Shown: positions 15,578 through 62,419, counted from the first letter of the stretch. The stretch: DNA of 64,000 nucleotides from Eukaryota sp. GEM-RC1 (GCA_040285855.1 JAUFOQ010000003.1:496001-560000); one strand, 5' to 3'. Program-made: numbers and translations. The notes: a model not told the origin generated them from the sequence alone.

Positions 15578-15877
15578 ACAACATTTGTAACTACAACATT
15601 TGGTGATACAACATTTGTAACTACAACATTTGGTGATACAACATTTGTAACTACAACATTTGGTGATACAACATTTGTAACTACAACATTTGTAACTACA
15701 ACATTTGGTGATACAACATTTGTAACTACAACATTTGTAACTACAACATTTGGTGATACAACATTTGTAAGTACAACATTTGTAACTACAACATTTGGTG
15801 ATACAACATTTGGTGATACAACATTTGTAACTACAACATTTGGTGATACAACATTTGGTGATACAACATTTGTAATG
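15578..15877. repeat. Tandem array of 20 x 15-bp units in two variants
   Basis: Units ACAACATTTGTAACT and ACAACATTTGGTGAT in irregular order, with no spacers. Confidence 0.95.
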
Positions 15878-18414: not shown

Positions 18415-18867
18415 TGAGTGTGTGAAGTGGTGATGTTTAAGATGCAGATTGTGCAGGGAAACTTTCCTTTTACTATAATTTATATAACTATCTCCACTTT
18501 ATGGAAAATGCTGGTCGTACATAATTCTTAGAAGCTTGTTCTATCATGATGAGCTTTCTATCGTCTCATATGTCAAATTATATGTCTATGTAAAACGTGA
18601 TGTTGGTGCTGAGATTGAGCTTGATGACAAGCAATGTTTCTTGTCCTTGGACTACTTTCGAGCACTTCAATACATATCCGAGTCTTTTAAAGTCACCCCT
18701 TGATCTTACAAATCAAACATGAGATCTCTCTCCTAGCACTCGTTGATGCCATTCTATCTGAAGACAAGGTAACTTCTGCTTCTGTTTCACTAAATCCAAG
18801 GTAATTCCTCATCCTCCCTCCACTGCTGATGTTCCTCGTAGAAGTGGAACACCCCGATTTGTGTTCT

Positions 18868-20728: not shown

Positions 20729-20989
20729 AACTCATCTTTAGTGCAGTTGCTTCCGCCCTTCGTGAAACCACCACCCCAGTAATTGAAAGAGCTATTCGAA
20801 TTGCTGGTGATACTGCTCGTGATACTGCTAGCCTCCTCATACACCATATGCGATTTAAAACTCACCTTTAGTGCAGTTGCTTCCGCCCTTCGTGAAACCA
20901 CCACCCCAGTAATTGAAAGAGCTATTCGAATTGCTGGTGATACTGCTCGTGATACTGCTAGCCTCCTCATACACCATATGCGATTTAAA
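20729..20989. repeat. 130-bp tandem duplication
   Basis: 20729-20858 is repeated at 20859-20989, almost identically. Confidence 0.9.
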
Positions 20990-21865
20990 TTTGTTTTTAT
21001 AGATCATTAATGTAGTTTTCTTTGTTTAGATATCAATAAAGCATCCCGTTCTTCTTTTGTTTCCAAGTCTCTCCCTTGTTAACACGAAATCAACATATAC
21101 GTTCTAGTTCAATGCATTGTCTATCTTGTGATACACAAGAGCATTGAAAATATCATTGTTGATGTATTAAGTAATGAATGATGTCAAGTAAGTAAGTACA
21201 GAAATGTTGTATTTGAAGTGTATGAGATATCCGAAGACAGAAAAGATGTCTGCTATCTGTAGACAAACAGACATGACTCCAAAAATGAATACTGCAATTT
21301 CACTTTTCTTCTCTCTTGACATGCGTATGATCCTCAATCTTTCTAACTATAGACTGCGCAATATGAAAAGAAATTTTTCACTATGGTAAGTGCTTACCTC
21401 AAAGCTGAATTAGTGAGGTGTGACGCCGTTCCCCAGGTTGTCATCCAACATTTTTACCCAGTTGTCTCCCGCTTGGACAAATGGCAATGAAGGTGTTCGG
21501 TTGGCAATCTATGGTTCATCCGTCGTTACACTCGCTACTTACTACCTAAGTCATAAGCGTGTGATTCCCTTCACACAAATTACCTACTATGACCATGGCC
21601 GTGTTCTACTCTTGAAGATTGACCTCTGAGAAGTTTAAGACAATGTCTTGTGACTTGTATTGACCACACTGTATAACTTTCTTCGTTCCATCCGTTTCAT
21701 TTCTCTCTGCTCTTCTTCCACTGAATTGCTTGTGACACAAGCAATAGACGAAAAAGTTGTTGTGTTAGCAAACTAAATGTAGCAGCATCTAAACAACTCA
21801 AAGTCACTTCTATCGTCTTCTCCATATGAAACAAACAGAATGATGACGATATTGCTCACTAACCC

Positions 21866-24800
21866 ATGGACACAATGTCTTCCTCTTGTCGTCTGATTTC
21901 GCTTTCCCCTGCTGGGTCAGTTGATGATGACGATGAGATGAAGTCTTGTAACATGGGGTGTTGTGTTCTCTCTACAGAAGGAAATACATCGTGGATACGT
22001 GATCTTTCCGTTGATGGTGATATTGAACTCAATCCGGGACCTCCTCGTTCTGTACGAGCTTCCTCTACCCCACCAACTATGATCGATGCAAAGATAATCA
22101 GAGCTTCTTCCTCCTTATCACATGATGATCAGCCACTACGAATACGAAAAGAGCCACTACGAAAACACATTACCAGATCTAAGAGAAAAAAGATGAAGTA
22201 CCACAACATCAGGAGGCACCGTTGTTGTCGTGTTTGGCATGATACATATTCACATCCATTTGTTAGGTCATGTAAACTCGACGGTTTGGTTGTTTGTTCA
22301 TGTTTACAACATCTAATGATTGATAATGATTTTGAACATTTGACAGATCCTGCTCCAGATGTCATCACTGAGCCAGATAATAGTTCACGACGCTCTTTTC
22401 TCGATAGAATTCAGAAGGAATTGTGCTCACCCGGTTGTTGGCCTTCACTGTGGAAAATTGAGAATTTTATTGTTGCCAAACATTATGAAAGTATTGTCGC
22501 TGAATGCCAACGTAGTGAAAATCATCCTATTCTCTGTTATGACGATGAAGTTTTGGACGCACTTCATATTTATTGGCAGGATCTCCAGGATCCTGAAAAA
22601 GAATGTCGCTTCCTATTCAACCTATTGGATTTCAAATTACCATGCATCAAAATGATGATAAATGTCCGTCTTTTAAGCAACCTTTTTGTCATTTTATTGC
22701 ACCATGCCTTTATTGTTTAATTCCGGGGCATCAATATGAAAACTGTCCCTTTGCAGTTGCCAATTATAGTGATGTTACATTTAAGTTTAAATCATTATAC
22801 GAAAACATTAACCCAGACGTTTTGTTAAGACCTGAAGTAACGCTTGATATCTTATTGACAATGCTTCATATGCAATTAGCACAGTCAGAAAACCAGGTCC
22901 TTAAAGTGTATGATGTTGATACAAATCAATTTACACTTGAGATGTACAGAGTAAACCAAGAAGTTATTCAAGATTTTGCTAAATCGACAGAAGCTGTTCC
23001 AAAATTTCAAACATTGGTCTTTGATATTGCGCAAATTCTTCTGTTAATTGAAGAGGACGAAGACACTGAAAAGATTGATACTGAAAAGAATGATACTGAA
23101 ACAGCTGAATCCGATCAATTGTATACTCAAAATGCTCTTGATGATATGTGGAATCAATTTAAGGCTATCAGAGATTCATCATGGACTTCTCAACTACTGT
23201 CAAGATTTTTTAATTTGTGTTCTGTAATTGAATATTATATGTATGTGGATACAGCTGATGTCATCCGTATTGAGAAGGAAACAGTCATTGACACTGAAAA
23301 GATGAAGAAACAGGTAACATCATTGAAACTGAAAAGAAGTTGAAAATAGAAAAGTTATCCGACATAGGTATACCTTATTGGAGAATTTTTTTGGAACAAG
23401 GTTTGAAAGTGCAAGTATGTTGCTGTTCCAATTGTCTTTTGTGCCTATCATCATTATACTGCACAAACTTCTCCATGTCTAATGTTTTTTTGTCTATCGG
23501 CTATTAATTATTTAGTCTCAATGACATGGTATCTGCCAAATCACCAAGACTACTGTGAGTTATTCGACATATACACAGAATGGAGACATCCCCGTCTATT
23601 ATTGGAAGAACATGAAACGGTGGAGATTGTACTGCCACAAGAGAAAATAGTTGGCTCTATTGAATATCCCATCAATACCTCAAAATTAGCTAATCTAAAA
23701 TCTTTTGTCCGACTGAGCGAATTTCTAAGTTCGGTTGTTGATATTTTGACCAAAAATGATGAATGGAATACTGCCGTTGACGCTGTCCAGGTTAACTTTG
23801 AATTGGTGTTGTCATGTCTGCGGTTAATTCACAGTGCACGGAATTGCCGTATTGCCTTTGTCAATGAAGGATTACACACTTTTTTCGATCTGATTGAGAT
23901 GATTCGTCTAAATTATATTGATGATAATTGTAATATTCCTTTCATCGTTTCTGGTGAAACAGGTTCGGGTAAATCAGTTTTAACTGGAGTTGTTGTTGTT
24001 ATGGTTACTCTGGAACCAATCATTGTCTGCCAACCACGAATTTTACCAGCAACAAAACTATCAAATTTTATCAACGATTTGTGTGATACTACTTTTCCCT
24101 TGTCTGGATACCGTACAGGCAATAAGAACACAAATATCCCTCTGAATTCACAAAGGTTTATTGAAGTTCAAACTGCTGCTTATACTTCTAAATTTATAAC
24201 GAACAACAAAAATGTTGAAAAATTTATGACAATTATGGTTGATGAAGTCCATGAACGAAAATGTGATATTGACATTTTGTTAGCTCAGCTGAGGATTATT
24301 TCTCGAACTCCTCGATCTTCTTTAGGGCATTTGTTCAGCTACTATGGACACTCCAAATCCTTGTTTCAGATATTTAACTCAGGATTGTAGGAACCAGTCA
24401 TTTTATTTGAATTGTGAAAACAATTATACCATCCATGCTACTGGCAGAACCAACCCACTTGTTGTTGTTGACTATGACTGCATTAGTGTCAATACTTTTT
24501 TCCCAGACACCGTTGGTAGTCAACTTGTCCAAATCAGACTTTTCGAAGATCGTGAGGTTCTACGCCATTTTAAGTACCACGTTTTTAAAATATATCAATA
24601 TTTTACTAGCAGTGTCTGTCGTTACTACTCTCATTTCGTCAAAAATTTGAACCCAATTTCACACAAGAGTATAAACTTCAAAGAATTGGCTCAAGTTTGT
24701 CTCTGTTATTACTCGCTTGCACAGTCAATATTCAAGCGGTTTTCTCACTGTGAAGGATTTACGTTGCTTGTGTTTCTTCCTGGTAGTCCAGAAATTACTA

Positions 24801-27800
24801 CGCTTACTCAGTACATTGAGAATGAGTATACATTTCTCCTTAAACAGAAAAAACCTGATCTTGATGTATCACGTACAGTTAAACCAAATGTTCATCCTTT
24901 ATATTCAAGCCTGGATTCGAATCAACAAGACACGGCAGTGGCGAAACCAATGGAGAATCAATTCAAAATTGTTCTTGCTACAAATATAGCAGAATCTTCA
25001 CTGACAATTGACGGTGTGAAATTTGTCATTGACTGTGGTTTGTCGAAACAAACGGATGTTGATGATCTTCTGGAAACTCACCATTGCTCCATTGCTTCTT
25101 TGGACCAGCGCTCTGGTCGTGCTGGTAGAAATTCAGCTGGATTTGCGTTACGTCTTGTAAGTACAAAATTCCTTCCAAACCGTTTTCCACGACTAGACTA
25201 CGACAAACCTGAAATATTGACATGCTCATTAATTGAACCATTGTTGACGATGAAACAAATTGCTACTGACCCTACATCTTTCATCAACGAACTGCCAGAT
25301 ATTCCTTCATCAGAGAATATCCTATCTACAGTTGATGTGCTCTTCCGCAACAATGTTCTCACACAAAACAACCTCGATTCTGAGTTGACTTGTTTGGGGA
25401 AGTTGTGCAGTAAGGCGAATATTTCGTTCTTCAATTTTAAATTTTTGTTTTATTGTGTTAAAAATGATTATCTCTCTCAAGAGTTGATTATGTTAGCTGG
25501 TATCAACTCTATGTCGTTTATTCGCTGCCATCGTACTTTTGATTCATTTTATGATTTATTCAAATTTTCAGAATCAATTGATGTATTAAAATCTCTATCA
25601 ACTTTGGGAAATGATGAGGAAATTTCTGAATTTGTTTGTTCAGATATGTTTTTAAAATTATCACTGGTTGATTACATTTTTCGTGCAAAATTTACTAAAC
25701 TTCCGGTTGAAAAATACGATTCAACAGAACCAAGGTATAAAGGCGCTATTGATAATCTATCTAGATATGTACATTTAAAAAAACTAGAGAGATATTTGAA
25801 TGAACTAAGATCTCTTGTTTCACGGTTCCAGTATATGGAAGACTCCCCACCTACTCTTGTAAAAAAATTAGTTAATCTTAAGTCCACTGCCTTGATGCTG
25901 TTAAATTTTGTTACCAATCCTTCCGAATCTACTCTCGTTGAATTTCTTCAACAATCATCGATTTTTGTTGTACTTTTGTCACTCTTCAAATTCAGCAATG
26001 ACCCTCTACCAAGCAGTTGTGGCCTCGTATCCCAATAAGGCCTTCCACACAACTGTGGTAAACAATTCATCTTCTCAAATCCAATTGAAACTGTATGGCA
26101 GAGTTAAAGACAAAGAATCTTTTGACAAATTTATTGAAACGTTGTTTGGTAAACAGTTCGTTGTTCAAGGGTTGTTAAAACAGGGTAAGATTCCGAATTT
26201 TGGTATCTACTTACAAGACAATGAAAGTTCCACTGCAATATTTACATCACATTTTTCTGATCAGTATCAAGATCAATTGTTCATTCACAAGTGTAGTGGA
26301 AATGTAAATTCAATTAAGAAGTTCAAAATCAAATTGTACTTTGACCACAATAGATTCTTTAGTGGTCGTACGATTGTATGGGATAAGGCAACAGAATTTA
26401 TTAAAGACAAATCTTTTTGGGAAATGTATAGTCAATTGTATCATTGGGATCACATTGAATGTTGTGAGAAAAAAACTATTATGCTACAATTTGAAGTTGC
26501 TGCAAAACCATGTACTGATTTAATTCAGTACAATCGTCTTGACTATGAGAAATTTTATTCAGTCAACTGTAACAAGACACTGTTTCCTCTTCCTACTGTT
26601 CTAGCTCCTACTAGTGATACTGCAAGTTACCACAATGGAATTTTTGTTGGAGACAAGCTGCCCCAATTATTATCATTTATCCCGTGCACAACTAATTTGT
26701 TCATCATATGGTTAATGAACTTCAATATTAACTCAGAATCAGAATTAGAATTTGAAAAACCAGTTGTCAAGATCGGTAGACCAGATCACTGTTCTGACAA
26801 CAATTATCTTCAATTATATTTATTAAGTCACGAGCTAGATCTTAATGGAATATTTCAAGTTAAACGTCTCTGGAATGTGTTCTGGTCTTATCAAGAGTCA
26901 TTTATTGAATCAACTTTTGGATGTATCAACAGATTACGCATTCTGGTATATTTGACTGAACAAGGAATTGTTTCTTCAGTTGATTTATCCGCTTTTTGTC
27001 AAAGAATTGCTTGTATTGATTTGAGTAGATTTGAGGATCAATCAGTTGCTGTGGATTTTGTCAAAGAAGACATCATCATTTTCAGCTTTTGAAATTTCAA
27101 TTGAGAGATGAAAGCAACATGTTGATGTGTTTTAATCCTTCGTGTCCAATCTGTGGGATACTATCTGTTGATCTAAATTCTATTTTGAATTCTGAAATTA
27201 CAGTTCGTACTGAACAAATGATTGCTGAAGCTACTGAAATTGCTGAAGGTACTGAAGAAATGATTGTTGAAGCTACTGAAGAACCATGTGTTAGTGATTT
27301 ATTGTCTTGGACTAATACCAATTGTAAAGTCAATACTTACTCTGCGACATATTTGGGACAAAGTTGTAAAATTCTGAATTTTGTACATAATTCAGGTTCT
27401 TTGTTCTATGTTGTATTTGAACAAGAGTTCAAAATCCACATTGGAACATTAGATTTGGCAGACAACAACAGTGTCGTTGAGCATGTGACGGAGGTTGAGG
27501 CTGTGACGGAGTTCGATCCTACTGCTGTCGTGTTGTTTGTTGGCAAAAATTTTGTTTTCTACAACAATGGTAAAGTCCTCAAATTTTTTAAACGTAGCTC
27601 GGGAAGAGTTGAAGAATTCTGCAAACCCTTTGAACATCAATTAACAATGTTTGCTCTTCATGGCCAATTGGGTGGATATGCTGTACTGGTAGCTTCTGAA
27701 GGTCCCAAATTTTTTCTACATTACAAGAAGCCATCTGGAAAAGTTGGTCGAAAAGCATTGCCATGTGCACCAAATCGCAGTGACCCCAATGTTATTGACA

Positions 27801-28959
27801 TGGTTGGTACATCCAATTCTTTCATTTGTATATCGAATTGTATATTGTCGGTTATTTCAGTTACAGAAACTGACAAAAAAGACTTAGAATGGGATTCTCT
27901 TTCAATATTGTTAGATTTAGATGATTTAACAATTGAACGCGGAGAACAGTTTAAAAAATTAAGACGTTATGACAATTTGATATTAATTGCTGGTACATTA
28001 ACCATCCGAAAGCTAGATTTGTATGAAAAGCAGCGGCTTGATACAAAAGTAATGGATCTTTGTACATGTCATCACGATGACAGAATTATAGATGCAGTCT
28101 ATGTACAACGTTATGACACAATAATGTACATAACTGAATTAGGGTTTTGTATTGGTTTCGGTTTGAAACTGCCACAGAAACAGATTCAATTTATAATTGA
28201 TTGTTCATGTGGTGAGTTAACAGGTCAAATGTTAAAAATCGATTTTTGCAATGATTTAAATTCTTTCATTGTTCTGAAAAGGATGGGACACTGTTAATGC
28301 TTTCAGCATTATCTGTGATTGGTATTTCTGGTGTACAATTTGCAGTTCATGATGTTCGTTATTGTGATTCAAAAAATATTTACGAACAACGATTTCTTGA
28401 ACTACATGCTTTACGTATGCAGTCGACACAACAAGTTCAACAAGTTGAGATTCCTGTTGTTGAAGAAAGTGCTCATCCCATTGACATTGATACAACGAAA
28501 AGACTTCAGTTTCTTCAATCTAGATGGAGTGTTGATGAAAAAATCAACAAGGTGAAGCATTTGTTGACTATATTTGAGTTACAAAAAGTTGTAATTACAA
28601 CTGATTCAGCTGAAAAAGTAAGGAAACTTTCAAGGCTTGTTTCTGAGGTTGCTTTTAGAGTTGTGACACTAGAGGGTGGAAAACCACGAAAGATTACATC
28701 AAGTCTGAAAACATTCGATGAACATACTGGTCCTGTTTTATTGATCAGTACTACTCAATTAGCGGTTAACCATTCTGTTCAGGCTGATCTTTGTATAATC
28801 TTTGATCTGCCAAATGATGCCAGACATGTTCACAAATTGTATGAACATAATCAAAAAATCGTTGTCTTTTACGATTCTATCAGTGATAAGGACAAAAAGC
28901 AAAATTTAGAAAAACACTTCTTTAGACCCTCAGGATTGCAAGCACTTCATTTTATATAG
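21866..28959 (+). CDS. Putative polyprotein 1 (frameshift-interrupted): 2A peptide, CCHC knuckle, DEAH-box helicase, unknown region, beta-rich region, helicase-C-like domain
   Basis: Seven overlapping or closely spaced + ORFs. Motifs: WIRDLSVDGDIELNPGP; CLYCLIPGHQYENC; GETGSGKS; CQPR; VDEVHER; LVFLPG; LATNIAESSLTIDGVKFVIDCG; QRSGRAGR; C-terminal LLISTT...ADLCIIFDLP. Joining them into one frame is inference. Confidence 0.7.
21992..22042 (+). other. 2A/StopGo ribosomal-skipping motif #1
   Basis: WIRDLSVDGDIELNPGP is a perfect D-[VI]-E-x-N-P-G-P motif with picorna-like-virus upstream context. Confidence 0.85.
23900..25420 (+). CDS. DEAH/RHA-family SF2 helicase core (frameshift near 24330)
   Basis: Motifs I (GETGSGKS), Ia (QPR), II (DEVH), IV (VFLPG), V (ATNIAESSLTI) and VI (QRSGRAGR), followed by PEIL...L and an HA2-like LT.LG. 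Confidence 0.9.
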
Positions 28960-29411
28960 TCTTTCAATAATTCATTGATGTTTTTGTATTATGTAGAACA
29001 ATATACTTTATTACAATTTTTCTTTATTTATCAATCAACGAAGAAGTTGATTGATTGGTTTTATCTGGTCTAAATTTATAATTTATACCATGATTTTTCA
29101 CATAAACTATGCTACCACATCTACACTGAATATGTAACAAATTGGTCTGGTTTTATATGTCACATTTTCTGACATACTAAATCTGTAACAAATTTCTGTC
29201 AGATTTCAGATGGATGAAATTCACGGATTGTTCTGTATGTAATAACTATGTAACAAAACATTGATATTTAGACTACGTCTGACACATTTCATTGAACATT
29301 GTAATATTGTACAAATATTGTTTATTTGATGTGTTATTCTTATATGTTATACAAAATTATAAATACATCTATATTGTACTATTTATTCTCTATCACTGTC
29401 AATTCATTTTT

Positions 29412-30971
29412 TTAAAGTCTTTTTGATTCCAAAAGCACTTGCAGTGGTTTTAATTCTTCGTTTTCCTGTTTTTTCCCTAAAACTTCATTTTCGTCTTTTG
29501 TCTTTAACGATTTGATTTCAAATTTTGTTGTTGAACCATCAATTACATTTTGTTCTGTCACCAAATCAGGTTGTACACTCTGAAGTAAATCATACATAAC
29601 AAGACATAGATTTTTTCTTGATCTGTCAGTGTATAATTTTGTCTGATTTTGTTCCTGACGTGCATCAACCATTAATCCTTGTAAAATTAAAGTAACATTC
29701 AAACAGACAATCCATCCACAGATAAGAGACGATGTGGACTGTGCAAAAGGTATATAGTAGTCCACCTTATACTGTGGTAATCTTGCAAACAGATTTGTTT
29801 CCCCACATCCATAAACAGTTCTAAAAGGATTAACGATTAATTCAGTGGTTAATGAGTAATCCAAAGAATCATATATATTGAATAATAATACATTTGCTTC
29901 ATTTAGAAACAATTCAATAAGAATCCAATGACCAGATCCTGCATCACCAGGAACATGTTCTTTCACCAAACATAATGGGGCAAGAATTCTTTTTCCTGAT
30001 TTTAGTGTATCGACAATAGCCTTACCAGAATGTAAGGCATAGCATATTGGATCACCTACCAACTGTTGAGTTTCTTGAGATTGCAGGAACTTATACCTAT
30101 TTGATTTAAATTTTTGGAATGCAAGCATCACAATGAAATCAAGTTCAGAACTCAACAAGAGTTGTGTTTTACCTTCCCTATCATCCTTTGTCAACATTTT
30201 CTCAATATCACTAAATCCAAATTTAAATTTTGAATTTATGTAAAACTGATCACTGATTAAATCTGCAGAAAGAATCAACGGGTTACGTTGTTTTTTGCGT
30301 TTCATAGGTTTAGATAAATTAGCATTATCACTGACTGGAACAGAAACTATTTCAGATGGTTCAGAGAAAATAGAATGAATATGATTGATTCCAAAGTTAT
30401 CAATACGACGTTTTGGTGAAGGAATTAAGACTTGTGATGGAGTATTGTCAATGCGAGTATTGTCATAATCATGTAAAAGAGTAGGAGACTGAGGCCGAGG
30501 AGGAGGAGAACGAGCAATTGTAACTCGTTTAACGTCTTTGAGTAGATCCTTAAGATGATTTAGAGTTGAAGTTGTTGAAGGAAGTGGAAGAGATATGTCA
30601 CGCTTCTCATAAGAACCATCAAAAGGAAAGAGATGAACAGTTTCTAGATCAACATCTAGCACAATGGCAACGGCTGATTTGTAGTTGAGGCAAAAATCCA
30701 TGGTACCCTTTTTAAGATCATCTGGTAAGTCAGATGTTGACACTTCCGTTATGTGAATGGATTTAGTTCTCCATGAATTGTATGTTCCATAAGGAAGAAG
30801 AACAAGTGACAAGTTAACTGCATACTTATCAGCAAGCTTTACAACAAGTTTCATATATGTTTTGATGGTACGGGAACGACTTTCTTGTTCAGAAGTATTT
30901 CTGAGTTTGAAGATTGAGTAGGACATGGGAAATTCTGGTATAGACTTTATTACAGATTTCGTTCCAGACAA
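29412..30971 (-). CDS. Protein with a C-terminal Ulp1/C48-family cysteine protease domain
   Basis: ILAPLC...GSGHWILI...IYDSL...AQSTSSLICGW gives H-D-Q-C catalytic residues in Ulp1 order. Intact frame; likely ATG at MSYSIF. Confidence 0.75.
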   Translation of the reverse strand: MSGTKSVIKSIPEFPMSYSIFKLRNTSEQESRSRTIKTYMKLVVKLADKYAVNLSLVLLPYGTYNSWRTKSIHITEVSTSDLPDDLKKGTMDFCLNYKSAVAIVLDVDLETVHLFPFDGSYEKRDISLPLPSTTSTLNHLKDLLKDVKRVTIARSPPPRPQSPTLLHDYDNTRIDNTPSQVLIPSPKRRIDNFGINHIHSIFSEPSEIVSVPVSDNANLSKPMKRKKQRNPLILSADLISDQFYINSKFKFGFSDIEKMLTKDDREGKTQLLLSSELDFIVMLAFQKFKSNRYKFLQSQETQQLVGDPICYALHSGKAIVDTLKSGKRILAPLCLVKEHVPGDAGSGHWILIELFLNEANVLLFNIYDSLDYSLTTELIVNPFRTVYGCGETNLFARLPQYKVDYYIPFAQSTSSLICGWIVCLNVTLILQGLMVDARQEQNQTKLYTDRSRKNLCLVMYDLLQSVQPDLVTEQNVIDGSTTKFEIKSLKTKDENEVLGKKQENEELKPLQVLLESKRL

Positions 30972-31266
30972 GTGAATTTACATTCATTACTTCATTACTT
31001 ATTGGAATTAATTCATTTTCTTCTCGTCTACGACTATACATGGCTTTATAGCAAATGAATTTAGAAGAGAACTAAGTCAATGAGTTTGGTTATACGATTG
31101 ACAGTCTTAAAGACTTCTTAAGTAATCACTAATGGTAACGGATGATGGTATAACATAAGAGTTGTTTTGATGTTTTGACACTCTACTGACTACAAGTGAT
31201 AGTAGAATTGTACTGTAGTCTAGACTACAGGGATGACTGAAACATTTCATTTTCCTCTATCCACAA

Positions 31267-34200
31267 ATGTTGGTTGTTTTACATTCTAACAGACACTCTG
31301 TTCCGTACAAGGCTCCTCTTTTGACCCAATATGAGGCGGAATCCCCTGCTTGGATTCTATCTCCGTTGAGTCGATATATGGATAGCTTTTTCTCCTCTCC
31401 CGTTGATGTCATGCTGCCACCTTGTTGTTTGTATTTGACCCAATATGAGGCGGAATCCCCTGCTTGGATTCTATCTCCGTTGAGTCGATATATGGATAGC
31501 TTTTTCTCCTCTCCCGTTGATGTCATGCTGCCACCTTGTTGTTTGTATTTGACCCAATATGAGGCGGAATCCCCTGCTTGGATTCTATCTCCGTTGAGTC
31601 GATATATGGATAGCTTTTTCTGTGTTGTGAAAACACTTCCATCTCTGCTGTTGTATGTACTCTACTTCTATTCATGTATCGTCCATTCCCATCCTCCGTT
31701 CCCAAAAGACCTCACCGCGGACGGTGACATTGAGTCCAATCCCGGACCGTTGTCCAAAGACTCCCTAGAGTATTTGAATCCTGGCCAATGGATAGATGAC
31801 GATGCTATCTTTCAATATTGTGCGTACCTTTTTAACTCTGCTGGACTAGCATTGGATCTATACTGTATCCTCTCTAGTGTGATGAATGGATTAATTACTG
31901 ATCTTTCACCTGAACATAAACAAACTGTAGATCGACAAATTCGTATTGCTAAAACCACCGGTACTCGATTCCTCATTGCTCCTATCAATGACGGTATGAC
32001 TGCCCTGTCTGCGTCACGCTCATTTTCAGGATCTCATTGGGGTGTTATTCTATTGGACTGTGTACAAAATGTTGCAACAGTTATTGATCCAATACTAAAT
32101 TCTACCTATTTGAACCCCATTGTTGATAAATTCAGAGAAAAAATGCCAAGTTTCACGATACGTTATGCAAACGTCCTGAAATCTCAGACTCCAAGTGATT
32201 GTGGAATTTATGTCATTGCATATGTTCAAAAATACTTACAAATTCTTACAACACATGAAAGTTTGTCTGATCTATCGATTGATTTTTTTTGCAGAGAAGA
32301 TGTGTGAAGTTAACAATGAACTTAATGCTGCAGATCTCCGTAAACAGATTCAGAAATTGTTTACTTATGTCGACGATCAATTGTTCATCAAATATTCCAA
32401 AATACTTGTGGAATCAAAAGGTTTAATCTTTTATGACCATGTAATTAGGCCAACTGATTTATATCCGTTATTATATGGTGACCAACCCTATAATAAATAT
32501 CCATTTTCAGAATTTTTGACACAGAAATTCTTCCAATGTGGTCAAAACAACCAACAAATGCTACTTGTTCCTGTCAATAGTGCAATGTGTGATCTTACTG
32601 CTGATGGTCGTCATTGGGGTTTAATTGTTCTGATCATTTCATCTCCTACAAGTCATATTTTATTCATTGATCCGACCTACGTTGAGGATGATTATGCCAG
32701 AGAATTTCCTGCTAACCAAACGCCAGTTGCACCATCTTCCTCCAATTTATTTACAATTGTGTCAAAAATTTATTCAGTGTTGTCAATGTGTGAAACCAGA
32801 AATATAGAATTTATTCCATCAAATATCAAACATACTCTAACTGACTCTGGTTTTTGTGTTCTCGAATACATTGATCTTTTAATGAATTTAGATCAATCTG
32901 TGGTCATAAGGTGGACTGATGTTAAAGAACTGCTGGGTAATACCACTATTGCTGTTCACGAGTCTCGAAGTAAAATTTTGGAACATTTTGAAACTTTTAG
33001 TCCTGTTGATTTGTCGCATGTGCCAAAAATGCCAGCCGTCCCTCCAAAACGTTTGTCCAGTTCAAGTGTTTCAACCGGTGCCACTCCTTAAACTAAAGTT
33101 TCTGCCATTAACTTATTGCCACCGACTGTATCAAAACCTGTTCCTGCGTCTCTCACAGGTTTGCGTCTAGCTAGCACTAAAGCATCCACTGGTTTAAGCA
33201 CCAAAAAAAGTAAACCCAAACTTGCATCACCAAGAGGTTCACCTCTAATTAAACAAAAGGAATCCAGAACAACCAACTCCCTTGTATCAACTGGTATCAC
33301 TCCTCAAACTAACATTTCTGTGACCACCGTATCTGAACCCGTTCCTTCGTCTCCAACTCCTAAACCATCAATTACAGAACAAGAACCCAATAAATCACAA
33401 AAGTTCTGTCTAATTGAGATAAAAAGTGTGATCTCAGATCCTGAACGCTTGAATCTTAAAGTCGTTCGAGTTAAACAGGAGCCAGAAGTAGACGAAGAGA
33501 TTGAATCAACTTCAGAAGGTATTCCACAAATTCAGGATACTACGTTTGAAATTCAGCGTGATCCAGATTTAGATCCAATTGTGTCGATCTCTCTTCAGTT
33601 TACCCATGATAAATTTGCAAATGAAACTCACCTATTCACCCGTAATGTTTCAGAAATTTCACTTTCTAATTGTGTAGTTCACACGTTTACAACTGAAAAA
33701 TCAATGTTAACAAATTTCATTACATTTTTAAATCTTAACAAGCCCAGTTTGTTAATAAGTTATGATTGGCATTTAGATACTTTTCCGTTTTTAGTATCAC
33801 GATTTAAAAAATTAGAAATTGACATTGATTATACAATTGATGATTACATTTCTTCTCTTCCATCTTGGTTCCACAGATGGTGCAAACCAACGGAAATTGG
33901 CCCTTTTTATTCCCTTGACTTGAATTCAGTATTGAAGAAGTTGTATGTCTTTAGAAGAGGTCGGTTTTTGGAAAACGTGACAACAATTATGATGGACATG
34001 AATAATCATTCAAGAACATTTGAAAGTTTTGACAAGGAAAATATCTTCCTTAAGAGAATATTTCATTCTTTAGACAATCCTCTAGTGTCAGATGAAGAAA
34101 TTAAGGTTAAAACTGATGAACGTCAAAACAAAGCGCCATCTGTGAAACTAAAACCCAAGGCTGTTATGGAGATTCGATTGTTAGCAGAATTAACAAAACT

Positions 34201-37200
34201 CAATGAACTTTGGGAATCTAAAACTTCAAGAGACACTTCGAGAGCCACTTTGTTATTGAACTCAATCAATAAGTTGTTTCTGATACAATACCTTTTATTT
34301 GATCTTCTCGATGAAAAGAAGCAAAAATTAAGAGAACGATCACCAATGAAGGTTGTGAAACAACGATTAGATAATGTTGTATCAAAGACTAAAGCCAATT
34401 GGATGGAGTCTTGTGCTAAGAGAGCTCATCAGGTCAGAGTTCGTGGTACACATATGTTGAAACATTTTTTCGTTACTAAGTTTCACAACTCTCTAATTTT
34501 CGACAAGGTCAAAGAGATACAACCTCCCACTGTTAAAGAAGAAATTGAAACAGACACTGAAGTTTCAGACACTGAACAAACAGAAATTTTAAGTGAAGAG
34601 TTTGTGCCTCAACAATTAGAAGAAGAAACTGAATTGCCTGTGACTTCAGACCCTGATTTTGGTTTGGATCGTACAATTGAATCCGAAATTTCAGAAGAAG
34701 ACAGCCAAATTTTAGAAGAAGACAGTATTGAAAATGAAACTGGTGAACCTGAACTTGACCTTTTACTAAAATTAAAACTACCAAATTTGAATTACCAGAC
34801 TGGGGAGCTTACTTTAAGAAGGGTCCAATGGGACAACTGTTGGCCATGATGTGGATTCCAAATCACCAATTTTTCAACAGCACTGATCATGTTAAAACTG
34901 TGGAAAACTCTTTAAACAACATCATTTCTAATGCAAAAACAACAACTACAAAGAAGGAGTTCGCCCAACACTTCCTATCAAACTACATCCCTCTGTTAGA
35001 AACTGCTGGTGAAATGGTTGGTAAAGATAGGATCGTGTTTCCAAGTGGATTATATTTGGCTAATCCTCTCGGTTACGTTGCAACCGAAATTATTACTAAT
35101 TATAAGAACAACATGAGCCAACACTTTCATGAGTATGTTTTTCAAGTTTTTAATTTGGTTACTCAAAAGAAAGAGAGAATGGAAGCTATCACCGACAAAA
35201 CTGAACGACAAGAACTCTGTCAAAGGATTAATGAAGTTAGAGAATTGATCATTAATGGTGAAATTTCTAAAATTAATTTTGATGACAAGCAAGTTTTTAC
35301 CAATCCCGAATCTCACTTGAGTATACTCTTCTTCAATTATTTGTTTAATTATTTTGAAGGAAAGATGGAGAAAACGATCTACTATGCTGAAAAGAGTGAT
35401 CCGTTATACTTTTTAAGTCATGCACTGTATTTGAACCGTCTCATTGAAGACTATTGTCCTGGTGTAAGAGCAAACAATCCTTTCCCATTGTCTAAATCTT
35501 TAATTCCAAATCATATCAGGTTCGATACGCAATGGTTTCACGAAATATTTTGTAGGGATCTTCCCTATAACTATAATGAAGTACGGAAACTTATTTGGAA
35601 TTCAGTATTAAAACCTCAGGCTATTCCAGAGTCATTATCCTATGACTTTAAATACACTTCAATTTCGTCAGACGGTTTAAGTTGTAGTTTGTTAATGATT
35701 AGGAAAGATTTACTTGATGAAAATGGAAATGCCCGTGAAAATGTTACAGCAGTTAATCTTGCTTCAAATGAACGATATATTGATTCCTTAAGTGAAGATG
35801 AAATTGAAGAACTGAATTTAAAATCTCAGAGAATTGTTGCTGTTGATCCCAACCAACATGATCTCATGTATTGTGCCAGTTTAAAAACTGATGAGGAAGA
35901 GGCGTGTGAGAAATTTGAAGTTGATGAAACAAAACATTTGATAAAAAATGGAATGACTAATGCTTGTGTTACAGAAATTGATCTTACTTCCAATGAACAA
36001 TATATTGATTCCTCAGTTGAGAAGGATGATTCCTCAAGTGAGAAGGAAATTGAGCCCAAGTCAGTTACCCAAGTTAGAAAAAGAAAGATTGCTCCATTGT
36101 CTTCTAAGAAAAGGGGAAGTTTGAAAAAAATGAAAAAACAATTAAATGATTGGAAGCAAGACACTAACCCACAACCTGTAAAGTGGAAAAATCGTGACAA
36201 ATGGAAGGTGTTCCGATACACTGCTGGGGAGAGAAAGGCAGATATTAACAAATCTAGATGGAAACCAAGAAAAAATCAGCCATCACAGTTCCAAAAAAAT
36301 TGACAAAGAAACAAAAAAGAAAAAAAGCTAAAAAGGAACGAAAGAAAAAAAGAAATTTCAAAAAACTTGAAAGGAAACGTGACAACAGAGGAATTGTCAA
36401 ATTGACCGAAAGCGAACGATTACAGAGGTACTCAACTGAGTTTGAGAAGAGTGTGTGGAATGGTCAAAAGTACTGGATTCCTACAGTTCTGATACTCCAA
36501 GAAGAAAATCATGTAAATTGGAAGAATTTTCAAGGTACATGGTTAACAATGAAGTTTTCTGTGCATTAATGAGATCAACCACAACTGGAAAAGCAACTGC
36601 TGAAGGATTACCTAAAAAGAAAGGACCATCTAAGAATCTATTTAAGAAAGCACTATCTAAGAAACTACCTAAGAAAGGACCAACTCAAAAAATACCTGCT
36701 ACAACAGAAGGCCTTTATGAAGAGAAATTTTTTAGACGTAGACGCCTTACCCAATATTCAAGAAAAGAACGAAGTGAACAAAACTTGGTCCATAGATTAG
36801 CTCTCCAATATGGTGATCCAGATGAAGTCGTTGTTGGTTTTGGGGATTGGAATGACACTCAATTCCGAAGAAGAAGGGGTAAGGCAAGTACAGTAAAAGG
36901 CGCTACTCTTCGAAACTTACTAAGAAAATTTGGATTTAAAGTTTTCTTAGTTGATGAATTCTATGACAAGCAAATGTTGCTCTGCTTGTGCTGCTGAAAA
37001 CCAGGAAGGTATCTGTTCCAATCCTGACTTTGTCAAGGTCATTGATCCTCTGTGGAAGAAGAAGTTACAGAAGGAGGAGAAGAAATTGAAAAAAGAAATT
37101 ATGGAACACAATCAATTAGACAATGTTGTGAAACGTAATTTTGAAGATGAATGGACCAAACAGTTGCCATTCATGAAAGAAAGATTAAAGAGCAAAAAAG

Positions 37201-37595
37201 TCTCACCATGGGGCTTAGTTCAGTGTGCTAAATGTCATGTCCTCTGGAATAGAGACTTCAACTCTGCTATTAACATTTATAACATTGTAAATGGAATTAT
37301 CCAAGGTCAAGGTAGACCTGCTGTCCTCGAGAGACCAAAATCTCAAACAATAACTATCGAGGATGGTGGGATTACAGATCAGGTTCCCAAGAAGAAGAGT
37401 GTGAGTAAGTGTCAGTTTTGTCATATGGAAGGCCATACAACGGCAAAGTGTCCTCAAAGACCTGTGCCTCCTAAAAGTCCTCGTACATGTACGATATGTA
37501 GACAACCAGGACATGATAGAAGAAATTGCCCAAGTAAGGCCCAGAAAGATGTACCCAAAGACTCACAAGTAGAGAATGAAGAACCGGAATCCTGA
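31267..37595 (+). CDS. Putative polyprotein 2 (frameshift-interrupted): 2A, SENP8/Ulp1 protease x2, Ser/Thr/Pro linker, degenerate PolB exonuclease-like domain, Fanzor1, 2 CCHC knuckles
   Basis: Seven overlapping or adjacent + ORFs that can be joined by small indels near 32290, 33085, 34820, 36265, 36455 and 36962. Motifs are listed in the sub-features. The exo-like region and the Fanzor N-terminus share one open frame (33116-34849). Confidence 0.7.
31321..31620 (+). repeat. 114-bp in-frame tandem repeat, about 2.6 copies
   Basis: Unit starts at 31321, 31435 and 31549 and encodes LTQYEAESPAWILSPLSRYMDSFF(SSPVDVMLPPCCLY). Confidence 0.92.
31699..31749 (+). other. 2A/StopGo ribosomal-skipping motif #2
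   Basis: FPKDLTADGDIESNPGP, immediately upstream of the protease domain. Confidence 0.88.
31750..32990 (+). CDS. Tandem SENP8/NEDP1-like (Ulp1 clan) protease domains; first looks active, second has Cys->Ser
   Basis: Domain 1: LNPGQWIDDDAI, FLIAPIND, SGSHW, VIDP, SQTPSDCGIYV. Domain 2: LLVPVNS, GRHW, FIDP, HTLTDSGFCV. Confidence 0.8.
34346..37595 (+). CDS. Fanzor1 (eukaryotic TnpB/OMEGA RNA-guided endonuclease) module
   Basis: Fanzor1-type blocks: KVVKQRLDNVV...RAHQVRVRGTHMLKHF; YVATEIITNYKNNMSQHF; PFPLSKSLIPNHIRFDT; SISSDGLSCSLL. RuvC-I VAVDPN (D 35845); FRYT; YEEKFFRRRRLTQY...VVGFGDW; RuvC-II FLVDEF-(x)TSKCCSAC (E 36956); GLVQCAKC; RuvC-III WNRDFNSAINI (D 37254). Confidence 0.88.
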
Positions 37596-37800
37596 ATCTT
37601 ATAAGTTAGCTCGTCCTAAAAGGCTTGCAAATGAGTGGCACAATGTGTCAAACTGTGGTGATAGTGTATTATGCATTTGAAATGAAATCCACAGTCTAGG
37701 TGGGAAAAGAAAAACAATTTGAATTGGGACCAAGAATTTTGTTATGACAAAATCTACTCATAGTACTAAAACGGACTTGAGATCATCATGATCTCATCGA
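37596..37800 (+). ncRNA. Candidate Fanzor omegaRNA scaffold / element right-end region
   Basis: Directly 3' of the Fanzor stop. Four inverted repeats: 37636-37650, 37652-37658/37689-37695, 37736-37753 and 37778-37796. Position fits known OMEGA systems; boundaries are a guess. Confidence 0.4.
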
Positions 37801-37921
37801 AGAAATACAGTGAATATACAGAATGAAACAGCAGTGTATGATACAAAAATAATACAAGAAAATAAATACCAAAATACAAATCTCAATCCCAGTCGAGATA
37901 TCAAAATAGAAAAATAATAAA

Positions 37922-40532
37922 TTACTCAAAAACCGAATCCGAACCTTCCTTTTCAAAGAAATCAACAGAAAACCGCAACAAAATCCTTAAAACACTAGAC
38001 ACTTCCTTCGAAACTGAACTTTCAGCCAGAATGTTCTTAATCGAATCAATGACAGAATGCACCTCGCCTACTTCAGATTCATAAACAAAAGCTACAAAAG
38101 AAGGAGTGGAGTGTTGGAGAAAGACTTTTTCAGCAGCTAACCTAACAGAAGATTCATTGTCTAACATTGCTATTAATAGAATTTTCAAAACTGATGGGCC
38201 GAAACAGGAAAGTGTTTCGACACATAATTGGCGGACAAAAGGTGATACGTCTCTTAGGGCGCCTTCAATCAAAAGTAATTTACCGTGTGATCCACCTCTA
38301 GTCAAAACATCAACAGCAAGTCGTCGAGATTCTTCAAGACCATCTTTAATCATGATGTAGGCTAGGGGCAAAATCGACTTGGAGAAGAGCCGTACTGGTA
38401 GTCCGAGCTCTGAGTTGATTAAGCAAAAAACGTCATCAGAATCAATTAGAGCTCGTCGCAAACTCAGCAAGACTTTGAAACAGAATAGCTTCAAAGTAGA
38501 ACTAGGAGATTCAGAAAAGGCAGAATAAGTTAAATTAACAAAATTTTCAAATTCCTCACTCACAAATGATTGAGGATTGTTGTGGAAATACTTACACAAA
38601 CATTTAATCAACATTGAAATTACCATAGTGTTAGTGGAAAGTGTCACGCGAGAGACATAAGTTGAGAGTAATTCTACTAAAGAAGCAGCACCACATAGAG
38701 AAAGCATCGCATCACATACAAAGACTTTTGAGCTTTCTCTTGACGATAAAATGGATAGTAATTTTTTAAATAGAATTTCTCTAGTTCTTGGTTGAAATGA
38801 GTCACAGCAGGTTTCGCAACAAAAGACTGCTGCTTTACGTACTTTAAAGAACCGATCACCTAATAACTTGGTCAAAATGATGTCGTGATTGCTATCAGAA
38901 AAGATTGGAATCAATTTGCTGAGTGAATGAGCTAACTGAGTTCGAATTTCAGTTGATTTGTCGTTGACTAGCTTTGAAATTTTGGATGGTGAGGAAAAAT
39001 CATAATTATGATGATTATTATAAATAAATTCAGTAAGTCCAATCAACGCAGCCAATCTAACACGTTCAGCTGTGTTTTCCAGACCAAAAATCAAAATTGA
39101 TTGGATTTCATCAAAATATTCCAAATTACAAATATCTTCCAGACTAAACTGTTGCCATGTTATTGAACAAAGTCTTTTCAATTCAGAAGAAAAAACTGCT
39201 TGGTCAATGGAGATCTCCAATCGCTTGCCGTTGAGTGACTCTTTAAGGAAACTTTCCTCGTCACCTACTTGTAAGAGACAATCAGAATCATCAGTAGGAA
39301 TCAACTTGATTGAAAGAGCTCCCTCTGTTTTCAAAACATTAGTCTTTGCAATCACCAAGTCAAAATCAAAGTGTTTCGATTGTTCTTTCTGACCCGTCAC
39401 GTCACCAAGTGCAAGAGAAATAGCTTCAAATATAGCAACATATGGATACGCCTTATAAACCTCAATTAAATGGGATAGACCACCATCTACATGGCCCAAT
39501 GTTCTGGCAATACAACTCCGTTGAAGTGAGCAATTCTTAGAAAGTAGTAGCTTAGAAAGAGTAGGAATGACTTGAGAGTTGTGGTGGGAGAGTTGTCGAA
39601 GAGCGAACACTGAAAGGAGTTTGGTTTCCATTGAAGTTGATTGACTCGTGATTGGGATCAGGAGTTGTTGATTTAGGAAGGGGATTATGATTGAAGGGCA
39701 ATTGATTGTGCTTGTTAGGATTGCCTGTTCAAATTGAGAAGAATTTAAACTTGAATTCAAATTTAACAAAATGCTGAGTCCAAGTCGTTCAAATAACAAA
39801 AATATTTTCAAAAAATAAGACAAAATAGAAGTTGCCGTGGTTCCAAACAGAAACTGACTAGATTCCAACAGAATCAAAAGACTTCTCAAGAGTCGTTGAG
39901 ATTCTGCTAGACTTTCCAATGGTAGTAACAAAACAATGACGTCATGAAGAGGTGTGAGAAACTCTAAATCATACTCCTCCTGGGGAGTACTACCTAGAGC
40001 AGTTAAGCAATCCGAAAGGGACTCAAGTACCTGGGTTTTAGAGGTCTCCTCGTGGAAGAGGAAGTCTTTTCTACAGAGTTCATGAAGAAGAGGTGGAATG
40101 GAAGAAATGTCCCTAGATGATCGAAGAAGGAGGAGGAGTTGTTGGAGAGATTTAGGAGGGGGAGGGTGATGGGGGATCTTCAGAGGAATCAGTTGAGAAA
40201 CCATCGTTCTCAGGTTGGGTGTGTGTAAGGAAGGATCTAGCAGGGGAGAGACTGATGTTATCTGCTATTTCTAGTGATTTGTAGACATCGTTGAGGATGG
40301 TTTTGTTTGAGCTGTGGTATCTAGAACCTGAGACTTGTTGAGGATCGTCATGAGGCGTATACAGTGATGATGTAACACTATGTGAGATTGATGGAGGCTT
40401 GTGAGGCCTTCTAAGTGGAGAAAAAGGAAGTCGGACAGATGCTAGGTTTTCCAAGGCTATCGGACCATTAGAACCACCAACAAACTCCTCAAACTCATGA
40501 AGAGAAGAGGAAAGATCGTCAAGAACAGACAT
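37922..40532 (-). CDS. HEAT/ARM-repeat protein (probable one-base indel in a C-run near 40155)
   Basis: Repeated motifs such as D...EIR..LA..L, D.FFKVRKAA, RD.SPFVRQ and D.ESSVRLAA. The 126-aa upstream ORF joins the 760-aa ORF if one C is removed. Confidence 0.7.
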
Positions 40533-44267: not shown

Positions 44268-45792
44268 CAGGGATGTTAAAAAATATATTTAAATAAATAT
44301 ATTGATATTGTCAAATTTGACGATAAATACATATATTTATTTCCAATATCTCTAGTACTAGTATAATGTAGAAAAAACAGGGTTTATGACAGGGCCTACG
44401 GAAAAATATTTAAATAAAATATGGCAAACTTTTTCTTGAATAAATAAATATGAGTTATTCCCGATGAAGAAAATAAATAATTGCAATTATTTAAATTATT
44501 TATTCAATGGAAACAAGGATACTACAACACTTCACAGACGTGATCTAACACAAACACTAGTACCTCTCCAGGTTTTGTGTGTTCTTATAACTTCCTAGAT
44601 CGGTTTCAGTGTTAAGAAGGAATGATTTTAATGTAGACACAGTGTTCTATTCAACGAGAATGTGGTCAAACCAAAGCGATGTTATTCAACAGTTACCGAA
44701 CAACAGCAAACACATTTTCACATATTTGGATAGTTTCAGGGTTGGAAGAATACAATCAATACCACGGGATTAGCGGTTTTGTGTTACGATGAGTAGAACT
44801 TTTTAAACCGATTTGGTCTGGCTCTGTTTCGATAGGGGAATGAACTTTGTCAAGCCCAGAAAGGAAAAACGCCATGTATTTGCACAAGATACCATCAATA
44901 TTTACAAAGGAGCTACCAAGACCACTACATCATCTCATATTCATGCTCAATTCTAAGAGATAGTTTAAAATTGAATCAAAAAATAGTTCAGAAAGTGTAC
45001 TCTTTTCTACTGCAATGAGTGCTGTATCTAGTCGCAGTACATGATAAAGACCGTACTGACGTTGCAGAATGTGACGAACTGCAACATGTTGCAGTTTTCA
45101 CCTTTATAGGTTGTCCAGTGAGAGAGCAAAAAATATAAAAATAATTTTTTATTTTCTGTTTTAATAAAATAAATAATGGAGAAACCCAACTTGAAAAAAT
45201 AAATAAAATATCATTATTTATTGTAAATATTTAAATACAAATATTTTTCCGTAGGCCCTGGTTTATGATCAATCAGAGAAAAAGTTCTAATGTAGTAATA
45301 CAGTCTACTCTTCGTCCATAACATCCCAATCTTGGTGCAACAAATCTTGACAAGGACTGTGGAGAAAAATGCTTCGAATAGTATTTTCATGTCATAGTTG
45401 CGCGTTGTACAGTAATAGTAACTGTTTCTCAAGGCTTGAAGGTTGCAAACGTGATCGAAGAGTGCCAATAGTAAGCATTGTACGACTGAACAATCTTTCG
45501 AACAACTAAAATCTATCGATATAGTCATTTTGATTTATAACTGTTTGTATCATATCTTATAAAATTGAGACAACGTTGAACGAGTTGTTTGAACAAAGTT
45601 CGACATTTGCAAATGAAAACACGACAATTTAGCATGAAAATACATTGTCACAATATTAAAATATATTGCAATATTATTGCATATTGCCGATTGAGACAAT
45701 AAATATATTGGTGATCCAACTGTTGACAATAAATAAATGAAAAATATGTATTGCCATAAATGAATAATAAATATATATTTTTAACATCCCTG
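44268..45792. mobile_element. hAT-type MITE (outer), containing a nested MITE
   Basis: TIR CAGGGATGTTAAAAATATAT; 8-bp TSD GAGCAGAG at 44260-44267 and 45793-45800. Confidence 0.9.
44390..45260. mobile_element. hAT-type MITE family A, copy 1 (871 bp)
   Basis: TIR CAGGGCCTACGGAAAAATATTT; 8-bp TSD GTTTATGA; inverted near-identical copy at 57082-57951. Confidence 0.95.
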
Positions 45793-62336: not shown

Positions 62337-62419
62337 AAGCAGACATGAAGAGGAAAAAAAAACATAATTATTTATTCTAAAAGTAATAGACAACAACACT
62401 ACAGTGTACATACATCTCA

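Follow-up and report, generated by a model that had tools for sequence, protein, structure and literature searches.

Our analysis concerns a window of 64,000 nucleotides (nt) from the genome of Eukaryota sp. GEM-RC1 (GCA_040285855.1 JAUFOQ010000003.1:496001-560000), in which a Fanzor1-type nuclease, predicted to be RNA-guided, lies towards the end of a long multidomain gene on the plus strand. GEM-RC1 is a free-living soda-lake metamonad whose assembly was made from Nanopore reads with Illumina correction (PMC11316075). A scan for open reading frames (ORFs) found seven consecutive open frames on the plus strand of 31237-37595, and the domains encoded along them follow the order repeat leader, 2A motif, protease 1, duplicated protease 2, PolB-type exonuclease, Fanzor1 and two zinc knuckles. 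No second copy of the Fanzor gene is present elsewhere in the 64-kb window. The features of the locus are as follows (aa, amino acids).

31267-37595, plus strand: leader-2A-protease-exonuclease-Fanzor1 gene, spanning about 2110 codons
31267..31746, plus strand: repeat leader of 160 aa, starting at ATG 31267, with the 2A motif at its end
31723-31749, plus strand: 2A/StopGo motif GDIESNPG/P (DIESNPGP at 31726-31749), from a motif scan
31747..32345, plus strand: protease 1, C48/Ulp1-like (PF02902, E 1.5e-4)
32283..32290 (near 32285), plus strand: break 1, a frame change in a T8 run, from frame analysis
32366..32900, plus strand: protease 2, tandem duplicate of protease 1 (protease-1 profile, E 5.9e-16)
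32900..33403, plus strand: Ser/Thr/Pro/Lys-rich low-complexity linker, holding break 2
33089-33091, plus strand: break 2, an in-frame TAA (Gln in aligned paralogs)
33404..34290, plus strand: PolB (Pol delta-like) 3'-5' exonuclease-fold domain (PF03104, E 4.5e-7)
34346..37340, plus strand: Fanzor1 (WED/REC, RuvC-I, RuvC-II, C4 zinc finger, RuvC-III), from the SpuFz1 match and motifs
near 34761 (T4), 36270 (A6), 36466 (A4) and 36960, plus strand: frame changes inside Fanzor1 (breaks 3 to 6), that at 36466 inferred from C-type paralogs
37410-37451 and 37488-37529, plus strand: two CCHC zinc knuckles, from a Pfam scan and motifs
37593-37595, plus strand: stop codon of the Fanzor gene
37596..37800, plus strand: expected omegaRNA and right-end site, placed by analogy with SpuFz1 (PMC10432273)

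Protein searches and cluster look-ups, with records matching the window excluded, yielded 110 named records, all of them NCBI hypothetical proteins of GEM-RC1; 14 belong to the family of a divergent ORF described below and 96 map to the Fanzor element. Six records were set aside before counting, namely five that are identical to window ORFs and P0048, which follows the window frames but skips 18 residues around the TAA. Since P0048 passes the TAA region by a called intron, gene models can bridge a stop. Relative to the window, three types were distinguished: A (85-97% identical), B (about 55%) and C (about 35-40%). A RuvC-I motif occurs in 35 named records, which sets the minimum copy count. 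The same protease cassette is joined to an A-type exonuclease in P0043 and P0052 and to a B-type exonuclease in P0055 and P0063, and with leaders, protease cassettes and exonuclease-Fanzor types occurring in different combinations, the copies are mosaics. No related loci were found in the metagenome and viral contigs searched.

The identity of the nuclease as a Fanzor1 is supported both by the sequence of the window copy and by a structure model of the paralog P0093. Positions 34840-36300 match SpuFz1 with E 2.4e-11 and GtFz1 with E 0.0012, and 36446-36994 match SpuFz1 with E 0.013; the Pfam Cas12f1-like TNB profile gave a match with E 0.0028, below the profile cut-off, and NCBIfam gave none above its cut-off. 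A preliminary description of the locus had listed Fanzor1 blocks with all three RuvC acidic residues and a CxxC...CxxC finger, and these were borne out: the motifs VAVDPN (35836), VDEF (36950), TSKCCSAC (36966), CAKC (37224) and WNRD (37245) place the acidic residues at D 35845 (RuvC-I), E 36956 (RuvC-II) and D 37254 (RuvC-III), the first two motifs aligning directly with SpuFz1 and the third via the relative P0119. These residues are retained in all records that match the respective motif patterns (35/35, 14/14 and 11/11). In Fanzor1 proteins the catalytic Glu lies six residues ahead of the C4 zinc finger (PMC13565253), and the same spacing is found in the family, as VDEFMTSKC in seven A-type and VDEYRTSKSC in six C-type records; in the window copy the VDEF-TSKC motif is split by break 6. 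The published Fanzor1 pattern D-X(125,275)-TS-XX-C4-X(5,50)-RD (PMC3627910) agrees with the family in its residues and in the finger-to-RD spacing. The D-to-TS distance is about 254 residues in P0093, inside the range, and exceeds 275 in both the window (about 373 codons) and P0119 (about 282 residues), which carry insertions. Internal duplications in the RuvC region at 35742-36020 and 36617-36697 (a 54-nt pair and three 27-nt copies) fall at the A-type insertions.

The P0093 model, which stands in for the window copy, was built on 124 sequences and reached a predicted local distance difference test score (pLDDT) of 72.1 and a predicted template modelling score (pTM) of 0.67, with the exonuclease part partly confident; an earlier model on 15 sequences (pLDDT 37) was not used. 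The comparison with SpuFz1 by HHpred or structure that had been proposed for the locus was run as a Foldseek search of this model, and all seven matches at E<=0.001 were chains of SpuFz1, PpFz1 and GtFz1 (E 3e-15 to 2e-13, target TM 0.52-0.67), with weak matches to PolB polymerases and Cas12 proteins. The model has a Fanzor1 fold with an enlarged REC domain.

The exonuclease-like region and the Fanzor N-terminus indeed share one open frame, as described previously (33092-34846), and 23 of the 96 records span the joint without offset. Pol delta was the top PolB match of the exonuclease domain in a PDB sequence search, and the sole lead of an Atlas search scored below 0.9. The PolB assignment made earlier thus stands for the fold and fails for the active site: by the standard definitions of the ExoI-III motifs, the ExoI D-x-E, ExoII D and ExoIII D residues are lost in types A, B and C, the window copy included, with ExoI and ExoII kept in the fragment P0239. 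All three motifs are intact in P0119 (FDVET, GYNCDKFD and YYCVND), where PF03104 matches with E 5.1e-13. P0119 is one unbroken record of 1473 aa, 32% identical in a search with P0093 as query, and consists of a 110-aa leader, the 2A motif GDVEANPGP, a linker that aligns with the window linker, the PolB exonuclease and a complete Fanzor1; a protease is absent. By its motifs, P0119 is a candidate with both nuclease sites intact.

A P0093 search of 1.84 billion representatives gave 1110 matches at E<=0.001. Among the best 150 of these 1110, the family exonuclease profile matched eight, six of which had helped to build the profile, and RuvC-I and RuvC-II motifs occurred in 85, with a median length of 648; P0119 alone among the 85 carries RuvC-I past residue 522. 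The Fanzor phylogeny that had been suggested was built with FastTree from two regions (eight family rows with 60/61 stand-alone candidates, and six family rows with 60 others), using a midpoint root, short alignments and an outgroup drawn from the P0093 matches. The family and P0119 form one clade in both trees (support 0.97), and P0119 is the first branch within it in the REC/WED tree. As P0119 branches earliest and has this arrangement without a protease, 2A-exonuclease-Fanzor1 emerges as the core, to which proteases may or may not be added. The exonuclease-Fanzor fusion is therefore a conserved core, which is not visible from the window sequence alone. These comparisons fit an ancestral 2A-exonuclease-Fanzor1 form, from which the exonuclease residues would have been lost, with the proteases gained later.

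Both protease domains, reported earlier as SENP8-like, are assigned here no further than C48/Ulp1-like, and only the first has a complete active site. By the definition of the C48 catalytic triad, protease 1 carries His-Asp-Cys together with the oxyanion Gln (His 32035, Asp 32086, Gln 32185, Cys 32200) in the motifs HWG (32035), VIDP (32080) and QTPSDCG (32185), and its Pfam match lies above the profile cut-off; a QxxxDCG-type motif occurs in 13 paralog records. The best matches of the protease in a PDB sequence search were a bacterial CE-clan protease (E 0.001) and SENP7 (E 1.1). Protease 2 has no Pfam match. It retains HWG (32612) and FIDP (32663), and in HTLTDSG (32831) the catalytic Cys is replaced by Ser (32846) and the Gln by His. 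The Ser at the Cys site (HTLTDSGFC) is found in the window and in 12/12 paralog records with the motif, and protease 2 is likely a pseudo-protease. The proteases are an optional cargo of zero, one or two per copy, with none in P0119, one in P0113-P0115 and P0199, and two in others. Ulp1-type proteases prefer Gly-Gly sites, and no Gly-Gly is present in 32300-33088 or 33092-34744.

A further protease-like gene lies outside the element: a divergent ORF of 504 aa at 29415-30926 (minus strand), with a C48-like C-terminal half (GHW...YDSL...QSTSSLICG) and an N-terminal half without assignment, belongs to a 16-member cluster. The records do not support a regular association of this ORF with the element, as none of its 14 named records lies within two locus tags of a sampled 2A-protease record; one of the 14 lies three tags from a Fanzor fragment in this incomplete sample.

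The 2A motif described upstream of the proteases was confirmed as GDIESNPGP, which conforms to the consensus GD(V/I)ExNPGP and recurs in 12 paralog records as well as in P0119 and P0199. Ribosome skipping is predicted between 31746 and 31747, and because the motif lies upstream of the proteases, skipping would shed the leader alone. In the window leader, a 114-nt (38-aa) unit is repeated about 2.6 times, and the leaders of other copies are unrelated tandem repeats with periods of 27, 33, 38, 58 and 76 aa depending on the record; skipping may thus give a fixed Pro-initiated N-terminus regardless of the leader. The window contains a second 2A motif (DIELNPGP, 22019-22042) at the head of seven ORFs that form a broken chain with DEAH/Helicase_C domains at 21863-28959 (plus strand); over 27 aa, the 2A region of this chain shares 48% identity with the corresponding region of P0119. 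This chain may be another 2A-led multidomain element; a 130-nt tandem duplication (20729-20989) lies upstream of it.

The interruptions of the gene had been counted as six indels; they are five frame changes and the one in-frame TAA at 33089-33091. The single polyprotein of about 2100 aa that had been proposed is well supported at the level of the family, in that paralogs read through each break and P0055, P0093 and P0119 link the domains. P0055 (1098 aa) comprises a leader, the 2A motif, both proteases, the exonuclease and the start of Fanzor in one record, and P0093 (1182 aa) covers the exonuclease through RuvC-II. Break 1 is spanned by 9 of the 96 records, all with another protease-1 variant. 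The last helix of protease 1 (EVNNEL) sits past this break and belongs to protease 1 in all variants, making a natural stop at this point less likely. Gln stands opposite the window TAA in all eight records aligned at that codon. Breaks 3 and 6 are read through by 17 and 14 of the 96 records, respectively, and three records start just past break 6. Moreover, four of the five frame changes lie in T or A runs of four to eight bases, and since 36270-36540 is the most homopolymer-rich stretch of the whole element, assembly error is the simplest reading there. Two other explanations were rejected. A code in which TAA/TAG specify Gln is contradicted by two long ORFs (780 and 843 codons) that use CAA/CAG and lack TAA/TAG, and introns do not account for the breaks in close paralogs, as the offsets at breaks 2, 3 and 6 amount to between zero and one third of a codon.

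Several observations count against an uninterrupted chain. Two breaks recur in other records, as P0028, 95% identical to the window in protease 1, stops at the T run of break 1 and P0015 is interrupted at break 3. Break 4 is passed by P0010 alone among the A- and B-type records, and break 5 by six C-type records only (of 96). The A-rich zone 36270-36540 is not covered in full by any record of type A or B: five A-type records end at 36127 and 14 B-type records at one common position, and nine A-type records begin at 36539 or 36569. Correction of the breaks from other copies, as had been envisaged, is therefore possible in that paralog proteins read through each of them, but incomplete for types A and B in this zone. 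No single record joins protease, exonuclease and complete Fanzor, the chain being built from overlaps, and the paralogs are predicted gene models. Furthermore, the TAA and break 6 lie outside long homopolymer runs, so that the window copy may really be decayed. Taking these points together, we consider it very probable that intact copies carry a single ORF, and put a genuinely broken window copy at a little below an even chance.

The omegaRNA of SpuFz1 is encoded at the 3' end (PMC10432273). In the corresponding region 37596-37800, Rfam identified no family, the one match of the scan (E 0.65) being taken as chance, and 3'-end folding was not better than that of shuffled sequences (z 0.18). A perfect 8-bp hairpin at 37778-37796, about 185 nt past the stop, is a possible right-end or guide-scaffold landmark. 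Neither a reverse transcriptase profile (window ORFs and long paralogs) nor a poly(A) tract after the stop was found.

The reading we prefer, with somewhat better than an even chance, is that the locus represents a selfish element that exists in multiple copies, and in which Fanzor1 is fused to exonuclease-fold and Ulp1-like domains in a single long gene, with the leader shed by 2A, the chain kept whole and vacant sites cut under guidance. In such a scheme, a predicted guide RNA from the 3' end would direct Fanzor to vacant sites, and repair of the breaks would spread the element; Fanzor would act as a homing-type nuclease, as has been proposed for other Fanzors (PMC10432273, PMC13565253), and any transposase would act in trans. 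The ancestral exonuclease, intact in P0119, could have trimmed 3' ends, either those of the broken DNA or those of the guide RNA; its counterpart in the window copy may be a catalytically dead nucleic-acid- or protein-binding module. At the target, tethered protease 1 could act on silencing or repair proteins by stripping them of SUMO or NEDD8, a role comparable to that suggested for transposon Ulp1 domains (PMC2836005), and the Ser-bearing protease 2 may bind the modifier without cutting it.

A number of findings weigh against this scheme. A 2A motif by itself is no guarantee of 2A activity (PMC3708506). Terminal inverted or direct repeats (28950-31330 compared with 37560-37960) and a target duplication around the element did not rise above background, Pfam scans of window ORFs and long paralogs revealed no DDE transposase, and the Rfam scan and 3'-end folding yielded no guide RNA. 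Moreover, engineered exonuclease fusions impaired the Fanzor2 nuclease MmeFz2 (PMC12923547), a result that makes any obvious benefit from an active exonuclease less likely.

An extension of this scheme, which we regard as tentative and rather unlikely, is a natural multi-enzyme RNA-guided machine: the P0119 form would cut and, with its active exonuclease, trim ends or mature the guide, derived forms would bring a SUMO/NEDD8 protease to guide-chosen loci as an RNA-programmed chromatin de-modifier, and 2A would make the leaders interchangeable.

The element could instead be an RNA-borne, non-autonomous parasite of non-LTR (long terminal repeat) retrotransposons, using their reverse transcriptase in trans. 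The N-terminal 2A motif, the 5' tandem repeats that vary between copies and the CCHC knuckles at the C-terminus are reminiscent of such elements (in part after PMC3708506), and non-LTR fragments are present in the window. We consider this origin quite unlikely, as a reverse transcriptase domain and poly(A) after the stop are both absent and a 2026 review describes no retrotransposon encoding a Fanzor (PMC13565253); moreover, since the second 2A motif heads the unrelated helicase chain, a 2A motif in this window need not mark a retroelement.

The release of the nuclease by ribosomal skipping and cis-proteolysis, one of two alternatives raised previously, is also decidedly unlikely in the form of virus-style processing, in which protease 1 would cut the chain in cis and free Fanzor. 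Precursor processing is known from related CE-clan proteases of DNA viruses, the protease 1 triad is intact, and a long flexible linker follows the proteases. However, the 2A motif lies upstream of the proteases, protease 2 lacks its Cys, and stand-alone Fanzors require no release. The lack of Gly-Gly in the two intervals searched and the protease-free core of P0119 favour one tethered chain, and of the two alternatives the tethered one fits better.

A regulated split, with 36270-36470 as a true frameshift site in types A and B and most product lacking RuvC-II/III and serving as a non-cutting, guide-RNA-bound protease, appears highly unlikely. The absence of A/B-type records across the zone, the coincident ends of 14 B-type records, the nine A-type starts just after it and several slippery-type heptamers would agree with it; six C-type records and P0119 nevertheless read through, the break positions vary among A-type copies (36127, 36270, 36400), and the zone has the densest homopolymer runs in an element whose named relatives come from a Nanopore-based assembly (PMC11316075). 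Equally improbable is a decayed, now inactive cargo in which nested captures produced the fusion as a neutral side effect, for although the window copy has six breaks beside an LTR element with five in-frame TGA stops, most records are fragments, and the exonuclease and protease 2 have lost catalytic residues, the RuvC residues are invariant in the records matching their motifs, A-type copies are 85-97% identical and the joint is retained across subfamilies about 32-55% identical.

To our knowledge, the Fanzors characterised to date are compact single-module nucleases, and their host role is an open question. The GEM-RC1 family shares with Fanzor1 (SpuFz1 8GKH/9CEY, PpFz1 9CF0, GtFz1 9CER) the REC/WED/RuvC/zinc-finger fold, as judged from the P0093 model, the D-E-D triad, the Glu six residues before the zinc finger and a multicopy state; as in Spu-1, no transposase is seen in the element (PMC10432273). 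SpuFz1, PpFz1 and GtFz1 are single-module proteins of about 600-730 resolved residues, whereas here about 570 (P0119) to 1030 residues lie ahead of Fanzor, among them the 2A motif, the exonuclease domain and any proteases. The window copy further differs from these three in the two zinc knuckles after Fanzor, and terminal inverted repeats were not found.

Each module has precedents in mobile elements. Like Ulp1/OTU-bearing transposases (Ginger1, Mutator, Helitron), the family places a C48 protease on a mobile element, and in Ginger1 Ulp1 is likewise fused to the enzyme (PMC2836005). Here, however, the partner is Fanzor rather than a DDE transposase; the protease stands on the N-terminal side, can be absent and, where duplicated, has a second copy with Ser in place of Cys. 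The family also resembles the non-LTR elements L1Tc, Ingi, L2, CR1 and Rex1 in having a GD(V/I)ExNPGP motif close to the start of a single long ORF, which in those elements is ORF2 (PMC3708506); some 2A-bearing ORF2 proteins, among them those of Dualen/RandI, also carry a ubiquitin-like-modifier protease in the form of deubiquitinase domains (10.64898/2026.06.17.732966). Unlike these elements, the Fanzor family has no reverse transcriptase/APE, and its leader of 40-310 aa is often a tandem repeat. DEDDh/DnaQ nucleases occur in some transposons (PMC3627910, PMC6338049), and Fanzors often carry further domains (PMC10530073). The combination of a guided double-strand-break nuclease with an exonuclease is shared with the engineered TREX2-Cas9 and TREX/T5-MmeFz2; in contrast to these, the present fusion arose naturally and its exonuclease has a PolB proofreading fold. 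Since the engineered exonuclease fusions of MmeFz2 had reduced activity (PMC12923547), P0119 is relevant to genome editing.

In its architecture, this Fanzor1 of a multicopy element is a new variant. A natural fusion of Fanzor with an exonuclease, protease or 2A motif was not found in the literature passages searched, with Repbase and subscription journals outside the search; the available passages of PMC10711439, 10.64898/2026.06.03.729735, PMC12846837, PMC10691335 and PMC11423790 contain no mention of such a fusion. The same holds for the joint occurrence of 2A motifs and Fanzor in a metamonad-associated element. That the fusion is kept across subfamilies 32-55% identical, with Ulp1-type proteases gained and lost along the way, points to end processing and ubiquitin-like-modifier control as limiting the spread of Fanzors, and the limiting steps of this spread in eukaryotic chromatin become testable by domain and active-site variants.

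Other mobile sequences are present in the window. What we take to be an LTR retrotransposon lies at 1079-7501 (minus strand), with 110-nt terminal repeats that are 99% identical. In its pol region, each of the five in-frame stops examined reads TGA, and several stand where a Trp would be plausible; this pattern suggests that a directed process, such as G-to-A hypermutation, was at work. Presumed non-LTR retrotransposon fragments at 7475-8444, 55711-57107 and 59690-63206 contain motifs resembling reverse transcriptase and restriction-like endonuclease. An ORF of 843 aa at 15970-18498 (minus strand), presumably a Pif1-like helicase, is followed by a Cys-rich tandem repeat (15578-15875). Finally, an 870-nt inverted duplication, 97% identical, links 44390-45260 and 57082-57951, and an AT-rich palindromic sequence lies near it at 44291-44342.

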